A DNA stretch of 61,640 bases, counting the filler, from Fonticula-like sp. SCN 57-25 (taxonomy: Eukaryota), in assembly GCA_001724245.1 (NCBI GenBank). It is 11 parts of 11 records of this genome, joined end to end, with 100 filler letters (N's around TTAATTAATTAA, not from the genome) between each part and the next. Parts side by side here need not be neighbours in the genome. Positions count along the whole stretch, not along the records: positions 27,977 to 33,455 come from MEDX01000567.1; 10 more parts are not named here. One strand, 5' to 3'. Position numbers and translations under genes: made by a program. Below the pieces are notes generated by a model that saw nothing but the letters and a program-made list of their open reading frames with translations, was not told where the DNA came from and did no database searches. Shown piece by piece: positions 5,607 to 33,555 of this stretch (position 1 is its first letter; the number at the start of each line of letters is the position of its first letter).

Positions 5607-6916
5607 TGCCTTTTCAAGCGATGCTTCAATATTCTTGACTTCTGCCTGCGCCTCGGCCAGTCGCTTGCGGACGCATGCGTGGGCAGGAAGGGCGGCTTGG
5701 GGCGCAAAAGATGATGCAATATGAGGAGCAGTTTGCCACATTTCCATGTGACCATCATTCAGACCAACTGCAATGTTGCCAGACGCAGCATGATACGACA
5801 ATGAAAACACCTGCATAGCAAAATGGGTGAGCGATATAAATAGACAAGTGAATGACACACATTTCCACCACATTCGTAGTTTGCAGTTTGCACTCCATCA
5901 GAAGTGCGCCAAATACGGAGTGATTTATCCCATGACCCAGTGACCACGTGCGACTCGTCACCGAGAAAGGCGCCGCCATAGACATGACTGGTGTGCCCCT
6001 TGAGTGTCACATGAGGAGCTGATGGCCACGTGGTACCAGTTGGAACATTCCAGATGGAAGCAGTCTCGTCCACACTTGTCGCCAATAGCATGCGGCCCGA
6101 GGGACTGAAGCAGAGTGATGTGATCTAGTATAGTACCGATTAGTAATGAGAATAATACAAAATGGTATCATACTCCATAAAAATGATGCTTGCTATGTGA
6201 TACTTGTGCCCACTGGCCATTGGTCAGTCCATATATGTACATGTGACCATCACCACATCCCGCGGCCAACAGATTCCCGTCGGGCGAAAAGGCTAGACGA
6301 TGCACCTGACACTTTCGTGTGAGCAACAGCAAGGATTCATTCAATAACGCACATAATTAGACAATCCAGTCAATGTTTGAGCAATTGAATAGTTGTTTAA
6401 TGAATCCAAGAGTGTCACTGCTTGATCTTGTCCACCGACGGCAAGGATCCCACTGCCACTGGGACTGAACGCGCATCTAAACAACTAGGCACGGTATGAG
6501 CAAAGAAAGAGCACACATAATGCGTACACCCTTGTTGATCGTGTACACGGTCGAGTGCGCATTAATGTTTGTTACTTGGATGACATCGCCATTACGCGTT
6601 ACCCCGACAAGGCGCGTCCCGTCGGGCGACCACGCAACATCATTCACCTGACGCGATGGTCAGAACAAAAGAGAACAAATAAGCGCACACATAACTTCCA
6701 CACTGCACAGTGTACATCTCTGACGGCGAGGCGATGTCGGTAATGCAGAGCGAATCATCACTACTGCCAGTTGCCACCAATGTGCCGTCGGGGGAAATCG
6801 CACACCCATCGAACTGCAAACACAAACAGCATCAGATCAGCAGCCCATCAAGTCCGGCATCTTACCCGCGACGTGTGCGGTTTAAAAGTCGCCCTTTTCT
6901 CGAGCTGATTCGCCAT
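5607..6916 (-). CDS. WD40-repeat protein, copy 1 (3' truncated); paralogue of 7383-9490
   Basis: Spliced: MANQLEKRATFKPHTSR|..CAISPDGTLVATGSSD..|VNDVAWSPDGTRLVG..|LFRCAFSP..|VHRLAFSPDGNLLAAG..|..LKGHTSHVYGGAFLGDESHVVTGSWDKSLRIW. Intron positions match copy 2. Confidence 0.88.
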
Positions 6917-7382
6917 TGCGTCAGCGCCACTGCCTCCCCTTCTCCTTCACGTCCGACGCCAACCGCGGAAAGCTCGCCACCAAGACTCGCCCAGCAGCTG
7001 TCAGCATCATGATGCCGCTGAAGTCTATCACGTGATCAGTGATTGTCACCAACTGGTCACCAACAACTTGGCAACAAGACCACGCGGGTATCATGTTTGT
7101 GTATTCACCTTTTCATTTGTGCCTAGTATAATGATAATGTGCGTGTCTGTTGAGTGGCTGTGTGGCAGAGGGACCGACAAAGAAAGGGGCTTAGCGCTGA
7201 TTATTGAGATGTACAAGACACATCGAAAAAGATGCGTTTGGGCAAAACGTCAACATAAAATAAAAAGAAAGAAACGAACGACATTGAATAGAAAGAAAGC
7301 CATTGAATATAGAGAAAGAAAGTGAATGATAAGAAGCTAGAAAAAGAAAGAAAAGGAAAATAAGCAAGAGAAAGAAAACAAT

Positions 7383-9490
7383 CTAGATGGCATGTCCCTC
7401 AATAGTGTTCACACCGCTCCACTTTGACACCCACGTGGCCTTGTCGCCGTCAGTTTCGGCTCGCAGTTTACGTACAAATCCAATGAACTTTACTGCGTCA
7501 GATGCCTTGAGTGCTCCTTCACTCGCCTTGAGTACACGTGGCGGCAGTAGAGAGCATAGTGCGGCACCATGCCAACCAGCAAAGGCAAGACGAGAATAAG
7601 GAGCACCAAGTGACTCAATCCAGTTTGCAGTTTGCTCCACTGTCCATGATAGAACACTGTCACTCGGGGGTGTAAATGCGCTGTCATCACTCAGCTTGTA
7701 ATGTGCCATGTAAGCACGCAGTTGCAAAGCAGCGGCATCATCAAAGGTGACTTTATAATCCATGACGCTGTCCACGTGGAGCATCGTCAAGGTAGGGCCG
7801 TCAACATCATGCAGTGCAGTTTTCAGTTTGCCAAGACCAATGTCACATAGCCACTCGTTAAAGGCGTCCCCGCGGACATCCTCCAACCCAGAAACAGATA
7901 GACAGTCCGTCAAGCTGTCAAGTGTCTGCGTGCACTTATTGATGATACCAAGTAGCGATTCACGGAGCTCCACCAGCTGAATATATGCACGTGATTCTGT
8001 TGTATACTCGGCAGTTTGCAGTTGCTCAAGTTCTGTCTTCTCGCTCGTCACTAGACACACGTTATTATTATGCAAACATGAGAAAATGTGCGCACATTTG
8101 GCCTCGAGGTCGGCGATAGAGCGCTTCAGTTCCTGCTCACGTGACATCTGCTGACGTAATCCAACATCTGCCTTTTCAAGTGATGCTTCGACATCCTTCA
8201 CTTGTGCCTGTGCCTCTGCCAGTCGCTCGCGGACGCACGCGTGGGTGGGCGGCGCTGCTTTCGGGGCAGTAGAAATTTTTTTATAAGGATCAGTTTGAAA
8301 CAACTCAACTTGACCATCACGAAGACCAACAACAATGTTGCCAGACTCAGCGTGATACGACAATGACGTCACCTGCATAGCAAAATGGGTGAGCGATAAT
8401 AGTAACAAAGCATGACACACCTGTCCTACACAATATGGGTAGATTGCAGTTTGCACGCCATCAGAGGTGCGCCAAATGCGGAGGGAGTTATCAGGTGACC
8501 CAGTGATCACGTGCGACTCGTCGCCCAGAAAGGCACCGCCATTGACACCTTCTGTGTGTCCCTTGAGCATCACGAGAGAAGTTGGGCATGTGGCTCCAGA
8601 TGAAATTTTCCAGATGTAAGCAATTTTGTCACTGCTTGTGGCTAATAGCATGCGGCCTGAGGGGCTGAAGCAGAGTGAATTGATCTAGTATAGTACCGAT
8701 TAGTAATGCGAATAATACAAAATGTAATAGTATCATACGTGATTAGAATGATGATACTTGTTATCACATACTTGCGCCCACTTGCCATTGGTCAGTCCAT
8801 ATATATACATTTGGCCACCGCATCCCGCGGCAAGAAAATTTCCGTCGGGGGAAAAGGCAAGACATTGCATCTGCATGAACTATTGTGAACAACAGCAAAT
8901 AATCACATTGTCAACGCACAGAATTAGCCAATCCAGTAAATGATTGAATAACTGAATAGTTATTGGATGCATCCAAGAGTGTGATTTCCTTTTTATCTCC
9001 ACCGACGGCAACGATGCCGCGAGAGCTGAACGCGTATCCATACAACTAATCAAGAATGAGCAAAGAAAGCGCCGCAAACATGATGCGTACACACTTGTTA
9101 ATCTTGTACACGGTCGAGTGCGCGTTGTTGTTTGTGACTTGGATGACACTGCCACTATTTGTCACGGCGACAAGACGCGTCCCGTCGGGCGACCAAGCGA
9201 TATCATTCACCTTGATGTAGTGTCAGAGAAAGAAGGTCAAATGGGCGTTGGGCACGCACAATATTATATTTATCACACTTCACAGTGTACACTTTAGCCT
9301 GCGTGGCAATATTGGTAATGCAGAGTAAATTGTCATTACTGCCAGTTGCCACCAAAGTGCCGTCGGGGGAAATCGCACACCGCAACACCTGCAAACACAA
9401 GCAGCATCAGTCCCAGCACATCACAGAGAAGCAGCGCACCCACTCCGTGTGCGGCTTAATAGTCGCCTTTTTCTTTAGCTGATTCGCCAT
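7383..9490 (-). CDS. WD40 beta-propeller + coiled coil + two SAM-like domains, copy 2 (complete)
   Basis: About 7 WD-like repeats after splicing, then a heptad region (RERLAEAQAQVKDVEASLEK..). Two SAM-like segments follow: FNEWLCDIGLGKLKTALHDVDGPTLTML and LSWTVEQTANWIESLG..WHGAALCSL. Confidence 0.82.
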
Positions 9491-12163: not shown

Positions 12164-12948
12164 CTCAATCACGTCATATTATCCGATTACTCGGCTCAGA
12201 TTCCGATGAGGGGTGGGAAGTGCACAAAAGGCAACGAAAAAGAACAAAACGTTTTGCACGAATCCTGGCCAATCCGGTGCTGTACATATGTTTTTTGGAA
12301 TGGTTCTTTTGCATACTTTGGTCGCGTTAATAATAGAATGTTCCTTTTCGATCGTTCCAGTCCCACGATGTTGCACCCCCGTCGGAGCCAGCTTATAAAT
12401 AGCAAAACCAAGCAAAACGGCATATTGGCGCGTCCACCATCGATGGGGCTTTCGGTACACCTTTGCCACGTGGTGGGCCGTCTGCCGCCCTTCCGATGAC
12501 CCCCAAAACACCGATTTTACATGTCTTTTGCCGCGATTTACCTCCCTTTCGCCCCCGTCCCCATTTTCCCACCCCTTCCCCGCCCGATTTACCGAGACCG
12601 CCGCCGTTCTCCATACCTCAAATCTGATTGGCCATTATTTTTGTAATTTTCACGCAGACCACCCGCCATCGCTCCAATCATCACTCCCCCCATTACTGGC
12701 TCGACCAATCAGATGCGTATTTCTATTTAAGGCACTCTTTTTTCCCAGACGTCGTTTTTTCCCTTTTGGCGACGGCCGCGGCGCTTTCCTTTTGCCCCTC
12801 TCGGTTCTGCCGCCGGGTTTGCACGCCGTTTTTTCGGATCGCGCTCGCTTGGCTGTCTTGGTCAACGCGTGTGCTGCTTCCGCGAGCGTCGACCCTTTTA
12901 TTTGTCTTTCGTTCCCTGTTTTTGCAAGGGCCTTTGCATTCGTTCTTG

Positions 12949-23207: not shown

Positions 23208-24739
23208 CTAGCGCCGCTTCGTGTGGTCGGGCTCCTCAATCCCAGTGGCGACGACCGACACGCGCACCCGCCCCGTGAGGCTCTCATCAAAGCTCGAGCC
23301 GAAAATGATATTTGCGTTCTCGTCAACCTCTTGGCGCACCCTGAGACATTAAAGTCAGCAATTCATGTAAAAAACACCCAAAAAAATGTCATAAAAATGC
23401 ACAAAAAGACACAAAAACGGACCTGTTGGCAGCCTGGTCGACCTCAAAGAGGGTCATGTCGGACCCGCCGTTGATATTGATGAGCACTCCCTTGGCGCCG
23501 CGGAGCGTCGCGTCCTCGAGGAGCGGGTTGCTGATGGCCGCCTCGGCCGCCCGCAGCGCGCGGTTCTCGCCCTATTTCAACACAATTTAGCGCTGAAAAC
23601 TGCCAAAAAGGCGTATTTTTCGCCCAAAAAAGTGTCCAAATTACGTACGTCGCACTCGCCCGTGCCCATCATGGCCTTTCCGCTGCCCTTCATGACGGCG
23701 CGGACGTCGGCAAAATCGAGGTTGATGAGGCCCGGCATCACCATGAGGTCGGTGATCGAGCGCACGCCGTCGTGCAGCACCTCGTCGGCCATCTTGAAGG
23801 CGTCGGCGAGCGACGTGCGCTCGTTCGCTCGCCTGAACAGGTTCTGGTTGGGGATCACGATCAGCGTGTCGACCACCTTGACCATCTCGCGGATGCCGGC
23901 CTCGGCGAGGCGCATCCGGTGAAGGCCCTCAAAGTGGAAGGGGCGTGTGACGACGCCGACGGTGAGGACGCCTTGCTCGCTCGCGGCGCGCGCGATGACG
24001 GGGGCGGCGCCGGTGCCGGTGCCGCCGCCCATGCCGGCAGTGATAAACACCATGTGAGATCTGGCGCAGCGTCAGAGGGGATCGGAAAGAAACGTAGTTG
24101 AAAAGACGCATGAAAAGAGCCAAATGGAATAAAAATGACGCAAAGAAAAGGAAAATGAATATGAAAAACGCACCCCTTGATCGACTCGACGACATCGTCG
24201 AGCGACTCGCTGGCGGCCGCGGCGCCAATGTCGGGCTTGGCTCCCGCGCCGAGGCCCTTGGTGAGCGAGCGGCCGAGCTGCACGCGACGCTCGCACAGAG
24301 ACTTAAAGCCACGTCAGCGCGCACAAAGAAAGGCAAAGCATATTCATACCTGCGAGACGGCCTGCGCATCCGTGTTGGCGATCACAAACTCGACGCCCTG
24401 GAGGCGGCGCGCAATCATGTTGTTGACGGCATTGCCACCGGCGCCTCCCACACCCACAACCGAGATGCGCGGGCGCGCAAAGAGGTCCGTGTCCAAAGAC
24501 GGAGACGCGGGCGCCGCCGTCACCGACGCCTTTGGCTCCTTTCATCACCAATTCCCAATGGTTAGCAACCCGGGATCACGAGGAAGCGCATCATGACGTA
24601 CAGCGGCGGCGGGAGCGCGCGCAGCCGCAGCAGCAGCGCGGCCAATAATGGTAACATGGCGCGCCTGAAGCCCCTCGGCGGCCGACCGAAGCACCGTCGG
24701 GACCGTCCTTAGCGCCGACCCGGACCACAGCATCGGCAT
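23208..24739 (-). CDS. ftsZ: FtsZ with N-terminal mitochondrial-type presequence and 5 introns; short-tailed FtsZ2-type paralogue
   Basis: Spliced: [21 protein letters not shown]..|..[26 protein letters not shown]|..[10 protein letters not shown]..|..[30 protein letters not shown]..|..NPLLED..|..[34 protein letters not shown]. First intron is 24539-24601. Confidence 0.96.
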
Positions 24740-24966
24740 GGCGATCCTCTTGTTTCAAACCAACAAAACGAAACCAAATTTGGCGCGCCTTTCGATTTCT
24801 TTTTTTGGGCCCTTTTTCGTCGCTTTTCACAACCAATTTTGTTCATCTTCTTTGTATTAAATATTCTCGATAGACATTTCCCAACCACAGACACACGGCA
24901 TTTTTAACCCACAGCTTCATTCTAATGGGAGATTTTGTGAAAATGTACATGGACTATAGGAAGCGA

Positions 24967-26752
<1,786 letters not shown>

Positions 26753-27976: not shown

Positions 27977-28699
27977 CTCACTCATCAGCATGGCTTTCCG
28001 CTGTGGTGGGGCAACTGGGATAGCGCCGAGTGGGCCCGGTGGCGCCCCCCGCCGCTGCGCTCCGAGTACCAAAACCGGCCGCTCCCCGCCGGCTGGCCGC
28101 AAGCGCTGTCGTGGGAGTCGCTCGCGCTTCGCCCGCTCGTCATGATCCACAACAAACACACGTTCGAGTGGGCGGGCAAGCCGCTCAACACGATTGAGTT
28201 GCCGTGCCTCGAGCGACTCTTCTCCATCCTGACAGCGCACTTTACGGTGGTGTACAGCCGGCTGGAAATGAACGCCACGCAAGGGGGCGACAACCAGGCA
28301 TCGTGGCCGTTTGAAGACTATAAGCTGATCAAGGAGTGGACGCCCGTGCACGCCAATGCGTCCAGGCCCATCCTCGTGCAAGACCTCCCCGGCGACCTCA
28401 ATCTCGTGCAGCTCCTCGTCAACTCGCGCGCGACGCGCTTCATCTCTGTTCAGGGCGGGTCGATGGTGCTCCCCACCTACTTTGGCGGCGCGCACATCAT
28501 CATGCACAAGGGCGGGTTCGAGCTCACAAACAACGCTTACGAGTCGGCATTTCCGCGACTTGGCGGCGCCTTCATTACGACTGTGTTCACCTGCGACGAG
28601 CTTGAGGAGCGCGTGAACGACGTGTTCGTCAAGACGCACGTCGCAATGAGCAGCCACAAGGAGTATCTTTTGGAGAACCGCAGATTTACCGAGTACTAA
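27977..28699 (+). CDS. Hypothetical protein, 5' truncated, no visible introns; possibly a glycosyltransferase-like fold
   Basis: Open frame from the contig start: ..WRPPPLRSEY..IHNKHTFEW..RFISVQGGSMVLPTYFGG..; the family assignment is a weak recollection. Confidence 0.55.
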   Translation, partial: LTHQHGFPLWWGNWDSAEWARWRPPPLRSEYQNRPLPAGWPQALSWESLALRPLVMIHNKHTFEWAGKPLNTIELPCLERLFSILTAHFTVVYSRLEMNATQGGDNQASWPFEDYKLIKEWTPVHANASRPILVQDLPGDLNLVQLLVNSRATRFISVQGGSMVLPTYFGGAHIIMHKGGFELTNNAYESAFPRLGGAFITTVFTCDELEERVNDVFVKTHVAMSSHKEYLLENRRFTEY

Positions 28700-28784: not shown

Positions 28785-30209
28785 TCAATTCCAGGGTAGA
28801 TCCAATGGCGCGATGAGGCTGGTAATGGTGCTGTTGTTGGAAACGATGGAGTCACCCGCGCTGACGGAACGTCCAAGCGCCTCCATGGTCCACTTGCCGC
28901 CAGATCGGAAAAAGCTGCAGCACACAAGAGTGTCTCCGTCCTGCAGCTCAGTCCAATCATGCTGCGCAAACGTTGTCTTTGTATTCATGCCTGAAACAGT
29001 GAGAAAGACCTCCTTGAGCCTTTCAATGGAAACGCCGCCGCCAAGGTTCAAAATAACAAAGATCCGCTGGCACTCGGCGGGAATCTTTGCCAGGTTAACC
29101 TGAAGTCGCATGGAAAACATCTGCAGCAGCTGTGAATAAAACTATACATAACCAACTTGCTTCGCGTACCCGAGTCTTTTCATCGATCGCTCTCGGCACT
29201 AAACGGGAATTATGCGCCTCGCCCGAGCTGTACAAACTTTTCGCATAATCGGTATCATTGACCTAGAATAACCATCAGCTGTCGTGAAACATATGGTATC
29301 GTCCGCACCAAAGCGCCCTCAAATTCCAACAACTTGTTCTGCCCAACGACCGTGAAACATTCGGGCTTGCCATTCACCATGCGGAATGCCGCGCCGTAAA
29401 AGCCCGGATGGGTCAATCCGCCCTCAAACACCCAGGCCATGGTCACAGCAAGGAACTCATCAACGGGCAGTTCGCTTGATACGCGCGTTACAAGCGAGAT
29501 CTCAGAGCCTTTGCTAACGCCGAGCTCGGCGAGCGTCTTGTTGTCATTGCCGGGCGCCTGAGCAGACGAAGAGAAAGAGTTCGTTAATAAGCAAAACGAA
29601 AAGAAAGAGCATATACCGCAATGTTGGCGCGCTTGAACAACAGCTGCTGCTGCTTGACAGGCGTTTGAAATTTGATGCTGTTCTGCACCGCCTCCATAAG
29701 CTGCTTCACCGTCATCGAGGGCGTCAAAGGGAAGGCCTCGGACCGGCCGCCAATGTCCTTGACGGTGATCTTTTGATCGTCTGCTGTGGCCACAGGGGCG
29801 TCTCCCGACCGCGAAGACAGCGCATACAGCGAATCCATGCAAGACGTCCGGTACTGCGCCCACAGCGAGTCGATCTCGTCGGCCGAATACTTGGTCTTGC
29901 AGGCAGGGCATGACGCGTCCTTGGGCTTCGATTGATTCTGAAAGTCGTTCATCGTTTTTGGCAATTTATATGGGTTGGTATTGAACACACACTACGCAAT
30001 ATAAGTGAGCTTGGGCGAGGTAAAGCAAAGGAAACCCAACGTACGTTCACGCAGACAGGATGGTGATTCAAACAAGCCTCAAGATCAACTGCAGGGTACT
30101 CGGTCACCGATCTCACCACCTTGCATTTTGCACATTGAAGAGGCAACAGGGTTAAAGCTGCCTCCTTTGCTGAGTTCGCTTGTGGATTCTGTGAAGTTTT
30201 CCTCTGCAT
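28785..30209 (-). CDS. RING finger - ubiquitin-like - TerD-like domain protein, copy 1 (4 introns)
   Basis: Splicing intron 29992-30044 gives CAKC..CLNHHPVCVN|C..CPAC (C3HC4). Ubl: KITVKDIGG..MTVKQLMEAV..QQQLLFK..DNKTLAELGVSKGSEISLVTR. TerD-like: LQVNLAKIPAECQRIFVILN..LVCCSFFRSGGKWTMEALG. Confidence 0.8.
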
Positions 30210-30472
30210 GACGGCTCTGCTCACTGCTGTCTGTCTGCGTGGTTTGTATGCTTGCCAGGTGCTGCGCCTCGTTCAGTTTGCAGTTTGCAGAAAAAATGCC
30301 AACTTCGCAATGCATGCATCGATTGTGGCCATGCAAATGTTGGCCTATGAGCAACATAACATACACGTCCTTTTAAAGCCTTCCTAAAAATTAGACCTAT
30401 AGTTTCAGCTGAGAAAGACAACGGGCCACTACTATGCAATATCCAAATATTATTCATTGTGCTTCTTGCCTC

Positions 30473-31892
30473 TCAATTCCAGGGCAGATCCAGTGGCGCA
30501 GCGAGATTGGTAATGACGCTGTTGTTGAGCACGGCTCCGCTACCCAAACTCGCGGAGCGGCCTAGCACCTCCATGGTCCACTTGCCTCCAGATCGGAAAA
30601 AGCTGCAGCACACAACCGTATCTCCGTCCTGCAGCTCGGTCCAGTCATGCTGCGCAAACGTTGTCTTTGTCCTCATGCCGGAAACAGTCACAAATACCTC
30701 CTTGAGTTTTTCAATTGAAACACCTTCGCCAAGGTTCAAAATGACAAACATCCGCTGGCATTCGGCGGGAATCTTTGCCAGGTTAATCTGGAAACGCATG
30801 GAAAACATCTGTAGCGGATGTTAATAAAACTATACATGACCATTTTGCTTCACGCACCCGAGTCTTGTCCTCGATCATTCTCGGCGCGGCTGTGCTAGTA
30901 TGCCCATTGCCAGTGCGGTACAAATCCTGGGCATACTTGAGGTCGTACACCTAGAAAACAGATCAGCTTCATGAAACAAATGATACCATTCGTACCAAAG
31001 CGCCCTCAAATTCCAACAACTTGGTCTGCCCAACGACCGTGAAGCATTCGGGCTTGCCATTCACCATGCGGAATGCCGCGCCGTAAAAGCCCAGATGAGT
31101 CAACCCGCCCTCAAACACCCAGCTCATCGTCACAGCAAGGAACTCATCAACGGGCAGTTCGCTTGAAACGCGCGTTACCAGCGAAATTTCAGAGCCTTTG
31201 GTGACGCCGAGCTCGGCGAGCGTCTTGTTGTCATTGCCGGGTGCCTGTGCAGAAGAGAAAGAGAAGCGCTCGTTAATAAGAAACACGATGTGACAAAAAA
31301 TATACCGCAATATTGGCGCGCTTGAACAAAAGCTGCTGCTGCTTGATAGGCGTCTGAAACTTCACGCTGTTCTGAACAGCCTCCATGAGCTGCATCACCG
31401 TCATCGAGGGCGTCAAAGGGAACGCCTCGGACCGGCCGCCAATGTCCTTGACGGTGATCTTTTGATCGTCCGCTGTGGCCACAGGGGCGTCTCCCGAACG
31501 CGACGACAGCGCATACAGCGAATCCATGCAGGAAGTCCGGTACTGCGCCCACAGCGAGTCGATCACGTCCGCCAAATACTTGGTCTTGCAGGCAGGGCAT
31601 GACGCGTCCTTGGGCTTCGCCTGATTCTGAAAGTCGCTCATCGTTGTCGGCAACTTATGCGGGTTGGTATTAAACACACACTGCGCGAAATGCGTGAGCT
31701 GGGCGATCTAAAGCAAAGAAAAGTTCAGCGTACGTTCACGCAGACAGGCCGGTGATTCAAACACGCCAAAGGAAGGTCAATCGCAGAGTATTCGGCCACC
31801 CCTCTCATCACCTTGCACTTTTCACATTGAAGAGGCAACAGGGTTGAAGCTGCCCCCATGGCCGGGATAGCTGGCGGTTTCGCGCGGGACAT
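30473..31892 (-). CDS. RING - Ubl - TerD-like protein, copy 2 (same introns; start at 31892 or 31859)
   Basis: Near-identical exons to copy 1: CEKC..CLNHRPVCVN|C..CPAC, same Ubl, ends LDLPWN*. Confidence 0.8.
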
Positions 31893-32185
31893 TTGTCTTT
31901 CTTGGATCACGGCTCCGCTGTCTGTCTGCCGGTGAGCGTTGCAAAGCCCCTGCAAAGCCTCTAATCTGTAATTTGCAGTTTGCAGTTTGGCTGATTGTGA
32001 TTTTTTTACTGTATTTCCACCAGGGGGGTTCATATCTGTTTCGTCAATCGGTGCAATTCGACGGTTGGGCTGTAGGAAGCGGAGCATGCACAGCCTTATA
32101 AAGCAATTCTATAGAAATAGACCGAATGTTTATTAAACCTCAAGTCATCAAACGTTTCGAATGAGAAAAAAGAAATGGGACATTA

Positions 32186-33222
32186 TTATTCAACAACATC
32201 CCCTTTGCTGCAACAACACTGGATTCCAGGGCGGCTAATTGTTGCAATGAGGTTAGTAATGGCGCTTTTGCTAAACACAGCAGATTCACCCACGCTCACG
32301 GTGCGTCCAAGTGCCTCCATGTTCCACTTGCCGTCAACTCGGGAAAAGCTGCAGCACACAAGAGTGTCTCCGTTCTGCAGCTCGCTCCAATCATGCTGCG
32401 CAAGCGTTATCTTTGTCTTCATGCCTGAAACAGTGAGGAAGACCTTTTTGAGCTTTTCAAGGGAAGCGCCGCCGTCAAGGTTCAAAATGACAAAGATCCG
32501 TTCGCACTCGGCGGGAATCTTTGCCAGGTTAATGATGAGACGCGTAGATGACATCTGTAGCGAATGTGAGTAAACCAATGCGTAGCAACATTGCTTCACA
32601 CACCCGAGTCTTGTCCTCGATCATTCTCGGCACTATACGGGTATGTTGCCCCTCGCCCGAGCGGTACAAATTCCTTGCATATTCGATATCATTGACCTAG
32701 AATAACCATCAGCTACTGTAAAACATATGGAATCGTGCGCACCAAAGCGCCTTCAAATTCCGACAACTTGTGCTGCCCAACGACCGTGAAGCATTCGGGC
32801 TTACCATTCACCATCCGGAATGCCGCGCCATACAAGCCCGGATGGGTCAAACCACCCTCAAACACCCAGGCCATGGTCACCGCAAGGGATTCGTCAAGTG
32901 GCAGCTCGCTTGAAACGCGCGTGGTGAACCAAAGCACCGAATGTTTGCTGACGCCGAGCTCGACGAGCGGTCTTGTTTTCGTTACCCGGCGCCTGCGCGG
33001 AAAAACGATATAAAGTTTGTTAATAGGCAACTAGAGAAAAAAGAAACACACCGCAATGTTGGTGCGCTTGAACAAAAGCCGCTGCTGGTCAATGGGAGTC
33101 TGGCTTGCGAAGCTCTTCTGCACCGCCTCCATCAGCTGCATGACGGTCATGGTCGTCGCCCAAGGGAATGCAACGGGACGGCCATCGACGTCGTGCACGG
33201 TGATAGTTTCAGCGTCGCTCAT
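32186..33222 (-). pseudogene. Ubl - TerD-like copy 3; RING absent and frameshifted
   Basis: Starts MSDAETITVHDVDG directly at the Ubl. An extra base at 32969-32970 (gagcggtcttg vs gagcgtcttg in copies 1 and 2) shifts the frame and gives an early stop. A second shift near the end puts the conserved ccctggaat (PWN) out of frame. Confidence 0.7.
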
Positions 33223-33555
33223 GGCTGTAGAGGCAACGACTGACTTCCAGCTGCTACGGGGCAATAGGCGAAAAGCAGCAAGACAGGCGCAGGATCGCTG
33301 ATCCGCTGCTGCTCGCTCCCCTTGCAAAGTAGTTGCAAAGCACACCAGAAGCACACTTGAGGCTCCATCCGGCCAAATACTCAGTGTTGGCACAAATCAA
33401 ATATACCGTGGCCTGCCCATATTGTTCAATGCACACCGATCATAGTGATGAGACGNNNNNNNNNNNNNNNNNNNNNNNNNNNNNNNNNNNNNNNNNNNNT
33501 TAATTAATTAANNNNNNNNNNNNNNNNNNNNNNNNNNNNNNNNNNNNNNNNNNNN

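Follow-up and report, generated by a model that had tools for sequence, protein, structure and literature searches.

A tandem array of three paralogous genes, two of which encode a RING domain followed by a ubiquitin-like domain (Ubl) and a TerD-type domain, occupies exactly positions 28785-33222 of a 61,640-nucleotide stretch of the assembly GCA_001724245.1 (Fonticula-like sp. SCN 57-25), hereafter the window, which consists of 11 contigs of ~5.5 kb each with N spacers between them. The three genes, here designated A, B and C, lie head-to-tail on the minus strand (as do all array features given below) of a single contig (27977-33455, 5479 bases), as an earlier note on this DNA had claimed, and share 78-86% pairwise identity of their coding sequences. 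Gene C (28785-30209, 405 amino acids (aa); exons 30209-30045, 29991-29617, 29557-29309, 29262-29170 and 29120-28785; start codon inferred) and gene B (30473-31892, 403 aa; exons 31892-31734, 31680-31306, 31244-30996, 30950-30858 and 30808-30473; alternative start at 31859) are intact RING-helix-Ubl-TerD genes of five exons and four introns each, with every intron in phase 0 and with identical lengths of exons 2-5. The third copy, gene A (32186-33222; exons 33222-33052, 32992-32743, 32696-32604 and 32554-32186), is a Ubl-TerD paralogue devoid of the RING. The gene models confirm the reported sharing of intron positions across the array (four introns in B, four in C and three in A, which has introns 2-4), all introns being GT-AG and 45-61 nucleotides (nt) long. 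Such short GT-AG introns mark a eukaryotic nuclear gene irrespective of the host, and A, B and C are thus real spliced eukaryotic genes. Both domain junctions fall inside exons, exon 2 combining the second half of the RING, a helix and the start of the Ubl, and exon 3 combining the end of the Ubl with the presumed start of TerD; by these gene models, exons 1-5 would be carried on a single transcript. The claim of three RING-Ubl-TerD copies, and of local duplication of this architecture, therefore holds for B and C but not for A, which is RING-less and frameshifted, leaving two rather than three intact genes of this type in the array.

The RING of gene C (29887-30134, approximate ends) is split by intron 1 (29992-30044; 53 nt, GT-AG, phase 0; counterpart in gene B at 31733-31681). 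Removal of 29992-30044 does make the domain visible, as had been noted: the intron is exact, and a C3HC4 (RING-HC) pattern with eight of eight zinc ligands emerges in B and C. Spliced gene C reads C-x2-C-x16-C-x2-H-x3-C-x2-C-x26-C-x2-C, and gene B the same but for an x17 spacer. The pattern was reached in 0 of 100000 shuffles of the N-terminal 128 aa for each of the two genes, and the zinc finger of B and C is real. Profile scans, in which the intron-split halves of the domain were searched apart, gave a weak Pfam zf-RING_4 match to the second half (E 0.014-0.035) and nothing relevant for the first half. With respect to catalytic residues, both RINGs have Lys at the equivalent of BRCA1 Ile26, Ala at the equivalent of Leu63 and Lys at the linchpin (Lys65) position, equivalences assigned by Cys numbering; a Pro stands six residues after the sixth ligand, early in the central helix, and the Pro of the last loop is kept. 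In BRCA1, binding of the ubiquitin-conjugating enzyme (E2) is defined by Ile26 and the linchpin is Lys65; the I26A/L63A/K65A triple mutant has no activity, whereas I26A alone stays partly active with some E2s (PMC9910797). Helix-breaking residues in the central-helix region mark the pseudoligase TRIM6 (PMC11992055). Given the atypical E2-contact residues and the early Pro, strong stand-alone ligase activity of this RING appears doubtful on sequence grounds. The proposed ubiquitin-ligase (E3) function is left uncertain: the zinc ligands and the linchpin Lys speak for it, but the hydrophobic E2 contacts and an intact central helix are missing.

Between the RING and the Ubl of gene C lies a conserved helix and linker (29775-29886), 95% identical between B and C, with a ratio of nonsynonymous to synonymous substitution rates (dN/dS) of 0.11. 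The segment is modelled as a 25-residue helix (exon-2 residues 37-61; exon 2 alone, low confidence with a predicted local distance difference test score (pLDDT) of 46) and is possibly a dimerisation helix. It is followed by an integral Ubl (29483-29775 in gene C, across intron 2), in which exon 2 matches positions 1-44 of the Pfam ubiquitin profile (E 8e-4 to 0.017) and exon 3 matches positions 49-71, the scores remaining under the gathering cut-off because the domain is split over two exons. Together with the PDB matches, 19 of 20 of which are ubiquitin or Ubl chains (best E 0.036), this bears out the reported presence of a Ubl after the RING. Its end lacks the C-terminal diglycine. At the positions assigned by ubiquitin numbering to the Leu8/Ile44/Val70 hydrophobic patch, B and C have Ile/Leu/Val, and A has Val/Leu/Thr. 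When the split exons were scanned with Pfam, RAWUL was not matched.

The C-terminal half of TerD is encoded by exon 5 (28785-29120 in gene C; counterparts B 30808-30473 and A 32554-32237), which passes the Pfam PF02342 cut-off in all three copies (29.2-32.6 bits vs. 25.3, at profile positions ~88-179 of 187). Further support comes from PDB matches to 3ibz (E 4e-4) and 2kxt (E 0.025), from an hhalign probability of 97% against bacterial TerD, from an ESM feature score of 0.96 to a TerD cluster, from a match to PHROG phrog_5698, and from profiles of 154 bacterial TerD domains, which match exon 5 with E 1e-14 to 1e-18 (in a search of three sequences). A fourth exon-5 variant, 93% identical to that of C, is found in public assemblies (P0001). 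The half-domain model of exon 5 (pLDDT 54) consists mostly of beta strands; Foldseek found no match for it at E 0.001, and the best VIA-align Z was 3.8. The assignment of the C-terminal domain to TerD (PF02342) is thereby upheld for its C-terminal half, whereas a match to the whole domain is not obtained, the N-terminal half alone scoring within shuffles. Nevertheless, the ~83 aa before exon 5 are of fitting length, and a conserved Trp and loop glycines are kept in the global alignment (~19% identity).

Exon 4 of gene C (29170-29262; counterparts B 30950-30858 and A 32696-32604) is a variable 31-aa segment; it aligns to the calcium loop (GDN...GxGxGDDE) of bacterial TerD and carries ~16 inserted aa after that loop. 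The DLD, GDN and DDE motifs, which we presume to be the calcium ligands, each show at least 96% conservation across 72 bacterial TerD domains of the GDN type, and none is kept in A, B or C; in this low-identity alignment, the Asp/Glu/Asn columns that are at least 90% conserved in the bacterial set are kept in 0 of 9 cases in C, 0 of 9 in B and 1 of 9 in A. The idea of a "bacterial-type sensor" is weakened accordingly: the TerD C-terminal half is present, but the acidic motifs are absent. With the calcium-binding residues lost, the probable role of this TerD, as judged from sequence, is to recognise proteins on behalf of the ubiquitin system and not to sense metal. TerD of Klebsiella binds calcium (PMC8123226). 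None of the ter partners (TerB, TerC, TerY, TelA and others) is present on the 5.5-kb contig.

Gene A begins at the Ubl and has neither RING nor helix. Its reading frame is shifted inside the Ubl by an additional base near 32969, and a missing base near 32235 alters the C-terminal tail only. The possibility that a RING or linker has decayed upstream of gene A was rejected since the 233-base upstream flank aligns instead to the promoter and 5' flank of gene B (score reached by 0 of 500 shuffles); against the RING and linker DNA the scores were reached by 61 and 85 of 500 shuffles, and the upstream frame did not resemble the part of the protein before the Ubl (scores reached by 1302 and 714 of 2000 shuffles). 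The frameshift was judged in four (X1, X3, X4 and X5) of 20 listed sequencing runs: the base at 32969 is present without a gap in X1 and X3, and the extra base is missing in X4 (depth 2.1, could be an error) and X5 (depth 11.4, differing at 8 of 151 letters, possibly another paralogue). From the latter two runs, an in-frame Ubl-TerD type probably exists. The Ubl of this RING-less copy is under purifying selection (A-C dN/dS 0.27), which indicates that Ubl-TerD was a maintained unit.

The dN/dS analysis by domain that the earlier note had proposed (Nei-Gojobori, 500 bootstraps) revealed purifying selection overall, with exon 4 as the exception. Between B and C, dN/dS is 0.30 overall (95% confidence interval 0.21-0.43) and 0.33 for the RING, 0.11 for the helix, 0.08 for the Ubl, 0.28 for the TerD part of exon 3 and 0.24 for exon 5; values well under 1 across the domains argue for translated and maintained genes. 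In exon 4 (31 codons), the copies share 48-58% identity, and dN/dS in the three pairs is 1.08 (0.43-3.10), 2.36 (0.76-6.54) and 0.57 (0.25-1.38), every interval including 1. Nonsynonymous change is concentrated in this exon (25 of 70 vs. 52 of 802 sites, p 3e-11), which is not seen for synonymous change (p 0.31). The history of the copies also differs along the gene, with informative sites grouping B with C in the Ubl region (61 vs. 18) and A with C between the TerD start and the end of exon 4 (36 vs. 22; max-chi permutation p 0.0005), and with the synonymous divergence (dS) of gene A at 0.83-0.92 in the Ubl and 0.26-0.44 in TerD. This site pattern and the dS contrast point to gene conversion or recombination in the TerD part. 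Thus, evolution in the manner of conflict or immunity genes, as previously suggested, is partly supported, by the exon-4 changes and the sequence exchange, but not by any region with dN/dS significantly above 1 or by the size of the family, which is small.

Taken together, these observations are best accommodated by a ubiquitin-system adaptor, a reading to which we assign a probability of roughly one half. According to it, a metal-free TerD would bind targets, the Ubl would dock on receptors, and the RING would act as a weak or partner-dependent ligase. The genes would constitute a small tandem family in a eukaryote, locally duplicated and gene-converting, in which a TerD of bacterial origin, with spliceosomal introns within it and its calcium site lost, became the target-binding end, and in which exon 4, the old calcium loop, may provide a surface that varies from copy to copy. 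The integral Ubl, with the patch intact and no diglycine, may dock on ubiquitin receptors, e.g., the proteasome or p97 cofactors; the RING and helix may form a non-canonical ligase module, weak alone or needing a partner RING (B with C, or another protein); and the RING-less type of gene A may serve as a plain shuttle or competitor. A comparable layout is found in the Ubl shuttles and adaptors Rad23, Dsk2 and midnolin, which combine an integral Ubl with a target-binding domain; the layout of gene A, an intact Ubl patch plus a presumed binding domain, resembles theirs, except that this domain is TerD.

Several points weigh against the adaptor reading. The RING as a whole is scored by its pattern and weak half-domain matches only. 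The N-terminal half of TerD alone reaches no distinction from column shuffles (score reached by 24 of 100 and 8 of 100 in local and 43 of 150 in global alignment), and since this half is undetectable on its own, the mapping of exon 4 to the calcium loop depends on the global alignment at ~19% identity. Variation of exon 4 fits a variable binding surface or, equally in keeping with the sequences, a loop under relaxed constraint. The host assignment (see below) comes from another contig of a mixed assembly, and the tetranucleotide correlation between the two contigs is 0.40. Finally, the DNA sequence shows the gene structure, the order of the domains, the loss of the acidic motifs, the purifying selection and the variability of exon 4, and the reading goes beyond this in predicting target binding by TerD, docking of the Ubl on receptors, ligase activity, dimerisation and the host.

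A bolder version of the adaptor idea, which we regard as unlikely, would place the array in a nucleariid amoeba, sister to fungi, where a component of the bacterial anti-phage Ter system has been turned into a receptor for recognition inside the cell, with a link to ubiquitin. The old calcium loop would then be a diversifying surface that binds proteins from ingested bacteria, from endosymbionts or from giant viruses, gene conversion would reshuffle this loop between tandem copies, and RING-bearing ligases and RING-less decoys or shuttles would coexist in one array.

It is conceivable, if rather doubtful, that the proteins are autonomous RING E3 ligases switched on by a TerD that detects stress or infection by way of calcium, a cyclic nucleotide or a nucleoside-like alarm, and act in stress response or defence. 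Indeed, TerD has been described as a ligand-binding part of the anti-phage Ter system (PMC7824862), binds calcium in Klebsiella (PMC8123226) and is part of the cyclic AMP (cAMP)-binding proteins of Dictyostelium (PMC3188802), and ter phenotypes have been described (PMC12054061); a defence role is possible. The eight zinc ligands and the linchpin Lys are kept, the tandem array, variable exon and sequence exchange are in line with such a role, and an altered pocket could bind a non-metal ligand. However, TerD lacks the acidic calcium motifs, the RING is atypical at its E2-contact positions in the light of BRCA1 (PMC9910797), dN/dS is nowhere significantly above 1, and no other ter-type gene is evident on the contig. 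A RING pseudoligase, i.e., a non-catalytic scaffold akin to BARD1 or Bmi-1/PCGF whose RING and helix associate with an active RING and whose Ubl mediates protein interactions as RAWUL does, rather than being a proteasome handle, seems to us quite unlikely. It would account for the Lys and Ala at the Ile26 and Leu63 equivalents and for a Pro positioned as in helix-broken TRIM6 (PMC9910797, PMC11992055), for the RING-then-Ubl order of Polycomb repressive complex 1 (PRC1) RING-RAWUL proteins (PMC2447854) and for the high conservation of the post-RING helix. Nevertheless, the linchpin Lys and the last-loop Pro are retained, the Ubl matches Pfam ubiquitin and not RAWUL and keeps its receptor-binding patch, and BRCA1 I26A is active with some E2s (PMC9910797).

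Even less can be said for a young domain-shuffling product that has no specific role and is drifting or decaying, an improbable explanation despite one of the three copies being RING-less and frameshifted, the decay of the TerD motifs and the absence of detected homologues beyond the lineage; it is contradicted by purifying selection over dS ~0.3-0.9, by conserved splice sites, by the frameshift missing from two of the four runs examined and by the occurrence of this DNA in runs of several studies. Separate expression of the TerD half, with the fusion being a modelling artefact, is highly improbable: although exon 5 starts with Met (ATG) in four of four variants and wholly contains the sole significant TerD match, the 49-nt gap between exons 4 and 5 is GT-AG in all three copies and has no room for gene ends and a promoter, and exon 5 is half a domain, to which exons 3-4 add ~83 aa with conserved Trp and Gly positions.

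A comparison with known systems reveals the individual parts of the architecture but not their combination. Bacterial TerD (PF02342; PDB 3ibz and 2kxt, the latter from Klebsiella) matches the C-terminal half by Pfam, PDB profile, phrog_5698 and profile-profile comparison; unlike it, the genes described here are eukaryotic, intron-split and fused behind a RING and a Ubl, have a barely alignable N-terminal half with the acidic motifs lost and ~16 aa inserted, and are unaccompanied by ter operon partners on the contig. Eukaryotic TerD acquired by transfer is known from CapA/CapB of Dictyostelium (PMC3188802; bioRxiv 10.64898/2026.03.01.708701). These proteins, whose C-terminal half is a TerD of bacterial origin, bear out the earlier statement that TerD occurs in Dictyostelium CABP1; they differ in being described as cAMP-binding, with no RING or Ubl mentioned in the passage describing them (PMC3188802). 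Among the PRC1 RING-RAWUL proteins (Ring1A/B, Bmi-1), an N-terminal RING is likewise followed by an integral Ubl (PMC2447854), but the Ubl of the array scores with Pfam ubiquitin/TUG-UBL1 rather than RAWUL, a TerD is added, and kinship by sequence was not detected. Proteins that combine ubiquitin and RING domains but lack TerD are common, and the top three exon-2 neighbours in the ESM Atlas (0.85, 0.82 and 0.78) are clusters of uncharacterised proteins of this kind, one mostly of Mucoromycota and 355 aa long; no TerD family is given for these clusters, and scores below 0.9 make them a lead only.

Searches for relatives gave little. With an exon-5 profile, HMMER yielded nine matches at E 0.001 among 1.84 billion representatives, comprising one sibling, three bacterial-type TerD and five repeat-protein matches, the last of which were rejected as spurious. 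CapA/CapB are not among the nine, so no close kinship with them is shown, and the TerD of Dictyostelium likely represents a separate transfer. Word-based searches with exon 2 (228 candidates, none at E 0.001) and with an exon-3 alignment (7384 candidates, none at E 1) were negative among longer proteins, which is weak evidence, and none of the 24 and 104 candidate stretches in viral contigs matched. One of 159 metagenome contigs did, and is of the same lineage; an NCBIfam scan gave nothing useful. The same architecture was not found beyond metagenome fragments of the same lineage, although single-exon queries could miss distant eukaryotic proteins, and a RING-Ubl-TerD fusion was not found in the TerD literature as searched; the 2012 survey by Anantharaman, Iyer and Aravind may list such fusions. 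Apparently, then, RING-Ubl-TerD is an undescribed combination of known parts, so far confined to one uncultured lineage.

The reach of these findings is limited, since the intact copies number two, come from a single uncultured lineage without detected relatives and have a predicted function. TerD proteins are widespread and tied to phage, colicin and tellurite resistance, with their binding partners unsettled; the loss of calcium ligands, the variable loop and the fusion to a Ubl and RING suggest that the TerD sandwich can be a protein-binding surface, in which case ubiquitination or degradation would offer a simple read-out for finding TerD targets. It would also add to the cases in which the ubiquitin machinery of eukaryotes has taken up a bacterial defence-associated domain, this time in a sister group of fungi that is poorly sampled.

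The host is probably an uncultured amoeba akin to Fonticula and related to fungi. The best named match of the ATP synthase beta gene on a neighbouring contig is Fonticula alba (88%), and in a tree of 27 of the 120 listed matches it groups with F. alba and seven environmental sequences (support 100/100); the prefix of P0073 and its placement in this tree suggest an aphelid and leave the Fonticula clade unaffected. As the link from the ATP synthase contig to the array contig is indirect, consisting of the tetranucleotide correlation of 0.40 and of a spaced TTTGCA motif that the array contig shares with another eukaryotic contig of the window (see below), the host is probable and not proven. FtsZ-like genes are present at 23577-26677 and 3-641, one of which adjoins the ATP synthase beta gene.

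Among the 20 listed runs, 19 contain the stretch in whole or in part, three of them at least half of its words; the three best-covering runs are bioreactor and wastewater DNA metagenomes, and the array DNA is present in runs from several studies. RNA is on record for none of the 20 runs, which says nothing on expression. A circular-looking contig (L001, 1-1745; 55-base terminal repeat) is C-like to ~718 and B-like from 719 and may represent either an additional tandem copy of C/B hybrid type or a switch made in assembly. The additional copy was not accepted: the crossovers in L001 and in run X3 differ, both lie in 38-48-base stretches identical between B and C, and assemblers can switch in such stretches.

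A candidate promoter element, TTTGCA-N5-TTTGCA, is located upstream of gene B (31940-31956) and again upstream of gene A (33323-33339). The TTTGCA-N5/6-TTTGCA form has three matches in the window vs. 0.08 expected (0 of 100 shuffles reach three), the third being at 12921-12938 on another eukaryotic contig. The contigs from runs X1, X3 and X4 end loosely at 33344-33358, which indicates that similar DNA recurs elsewhere. A word shared with the WD40 contig, TGCAAACTGCAAA, was dropped as a promoter link because its matches sit in coding sequence; that contig carries two tandem intron-rich WD40 genes (5607-9490, minus strand). Should they come from the host of the array, several variable tandem families would be present in it.

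Beside the array, a partial open reading frame (ORF) of at least 239 aa (27977-28699, plus strand) converges on gene C, 86 bases from its stop; it has no significant match in Pfam, NCBIfam or PHROG and may encode a glycosyltransferase-like protein. The contig set of the window is mixed, with composition and ORF appearance differing between contigs. Thus, the contig at 33556-39027 has a lower GC content (44%) and a poor tetranucleotide correlation with all other contigs (0.15-0.30), and is probably from a different eukaryote. The contig at 39128-44592 is intron-less and of distinct composition, with ORFs that look like a bacterial heavy-metal efflux pump and an outer-membrane channel.

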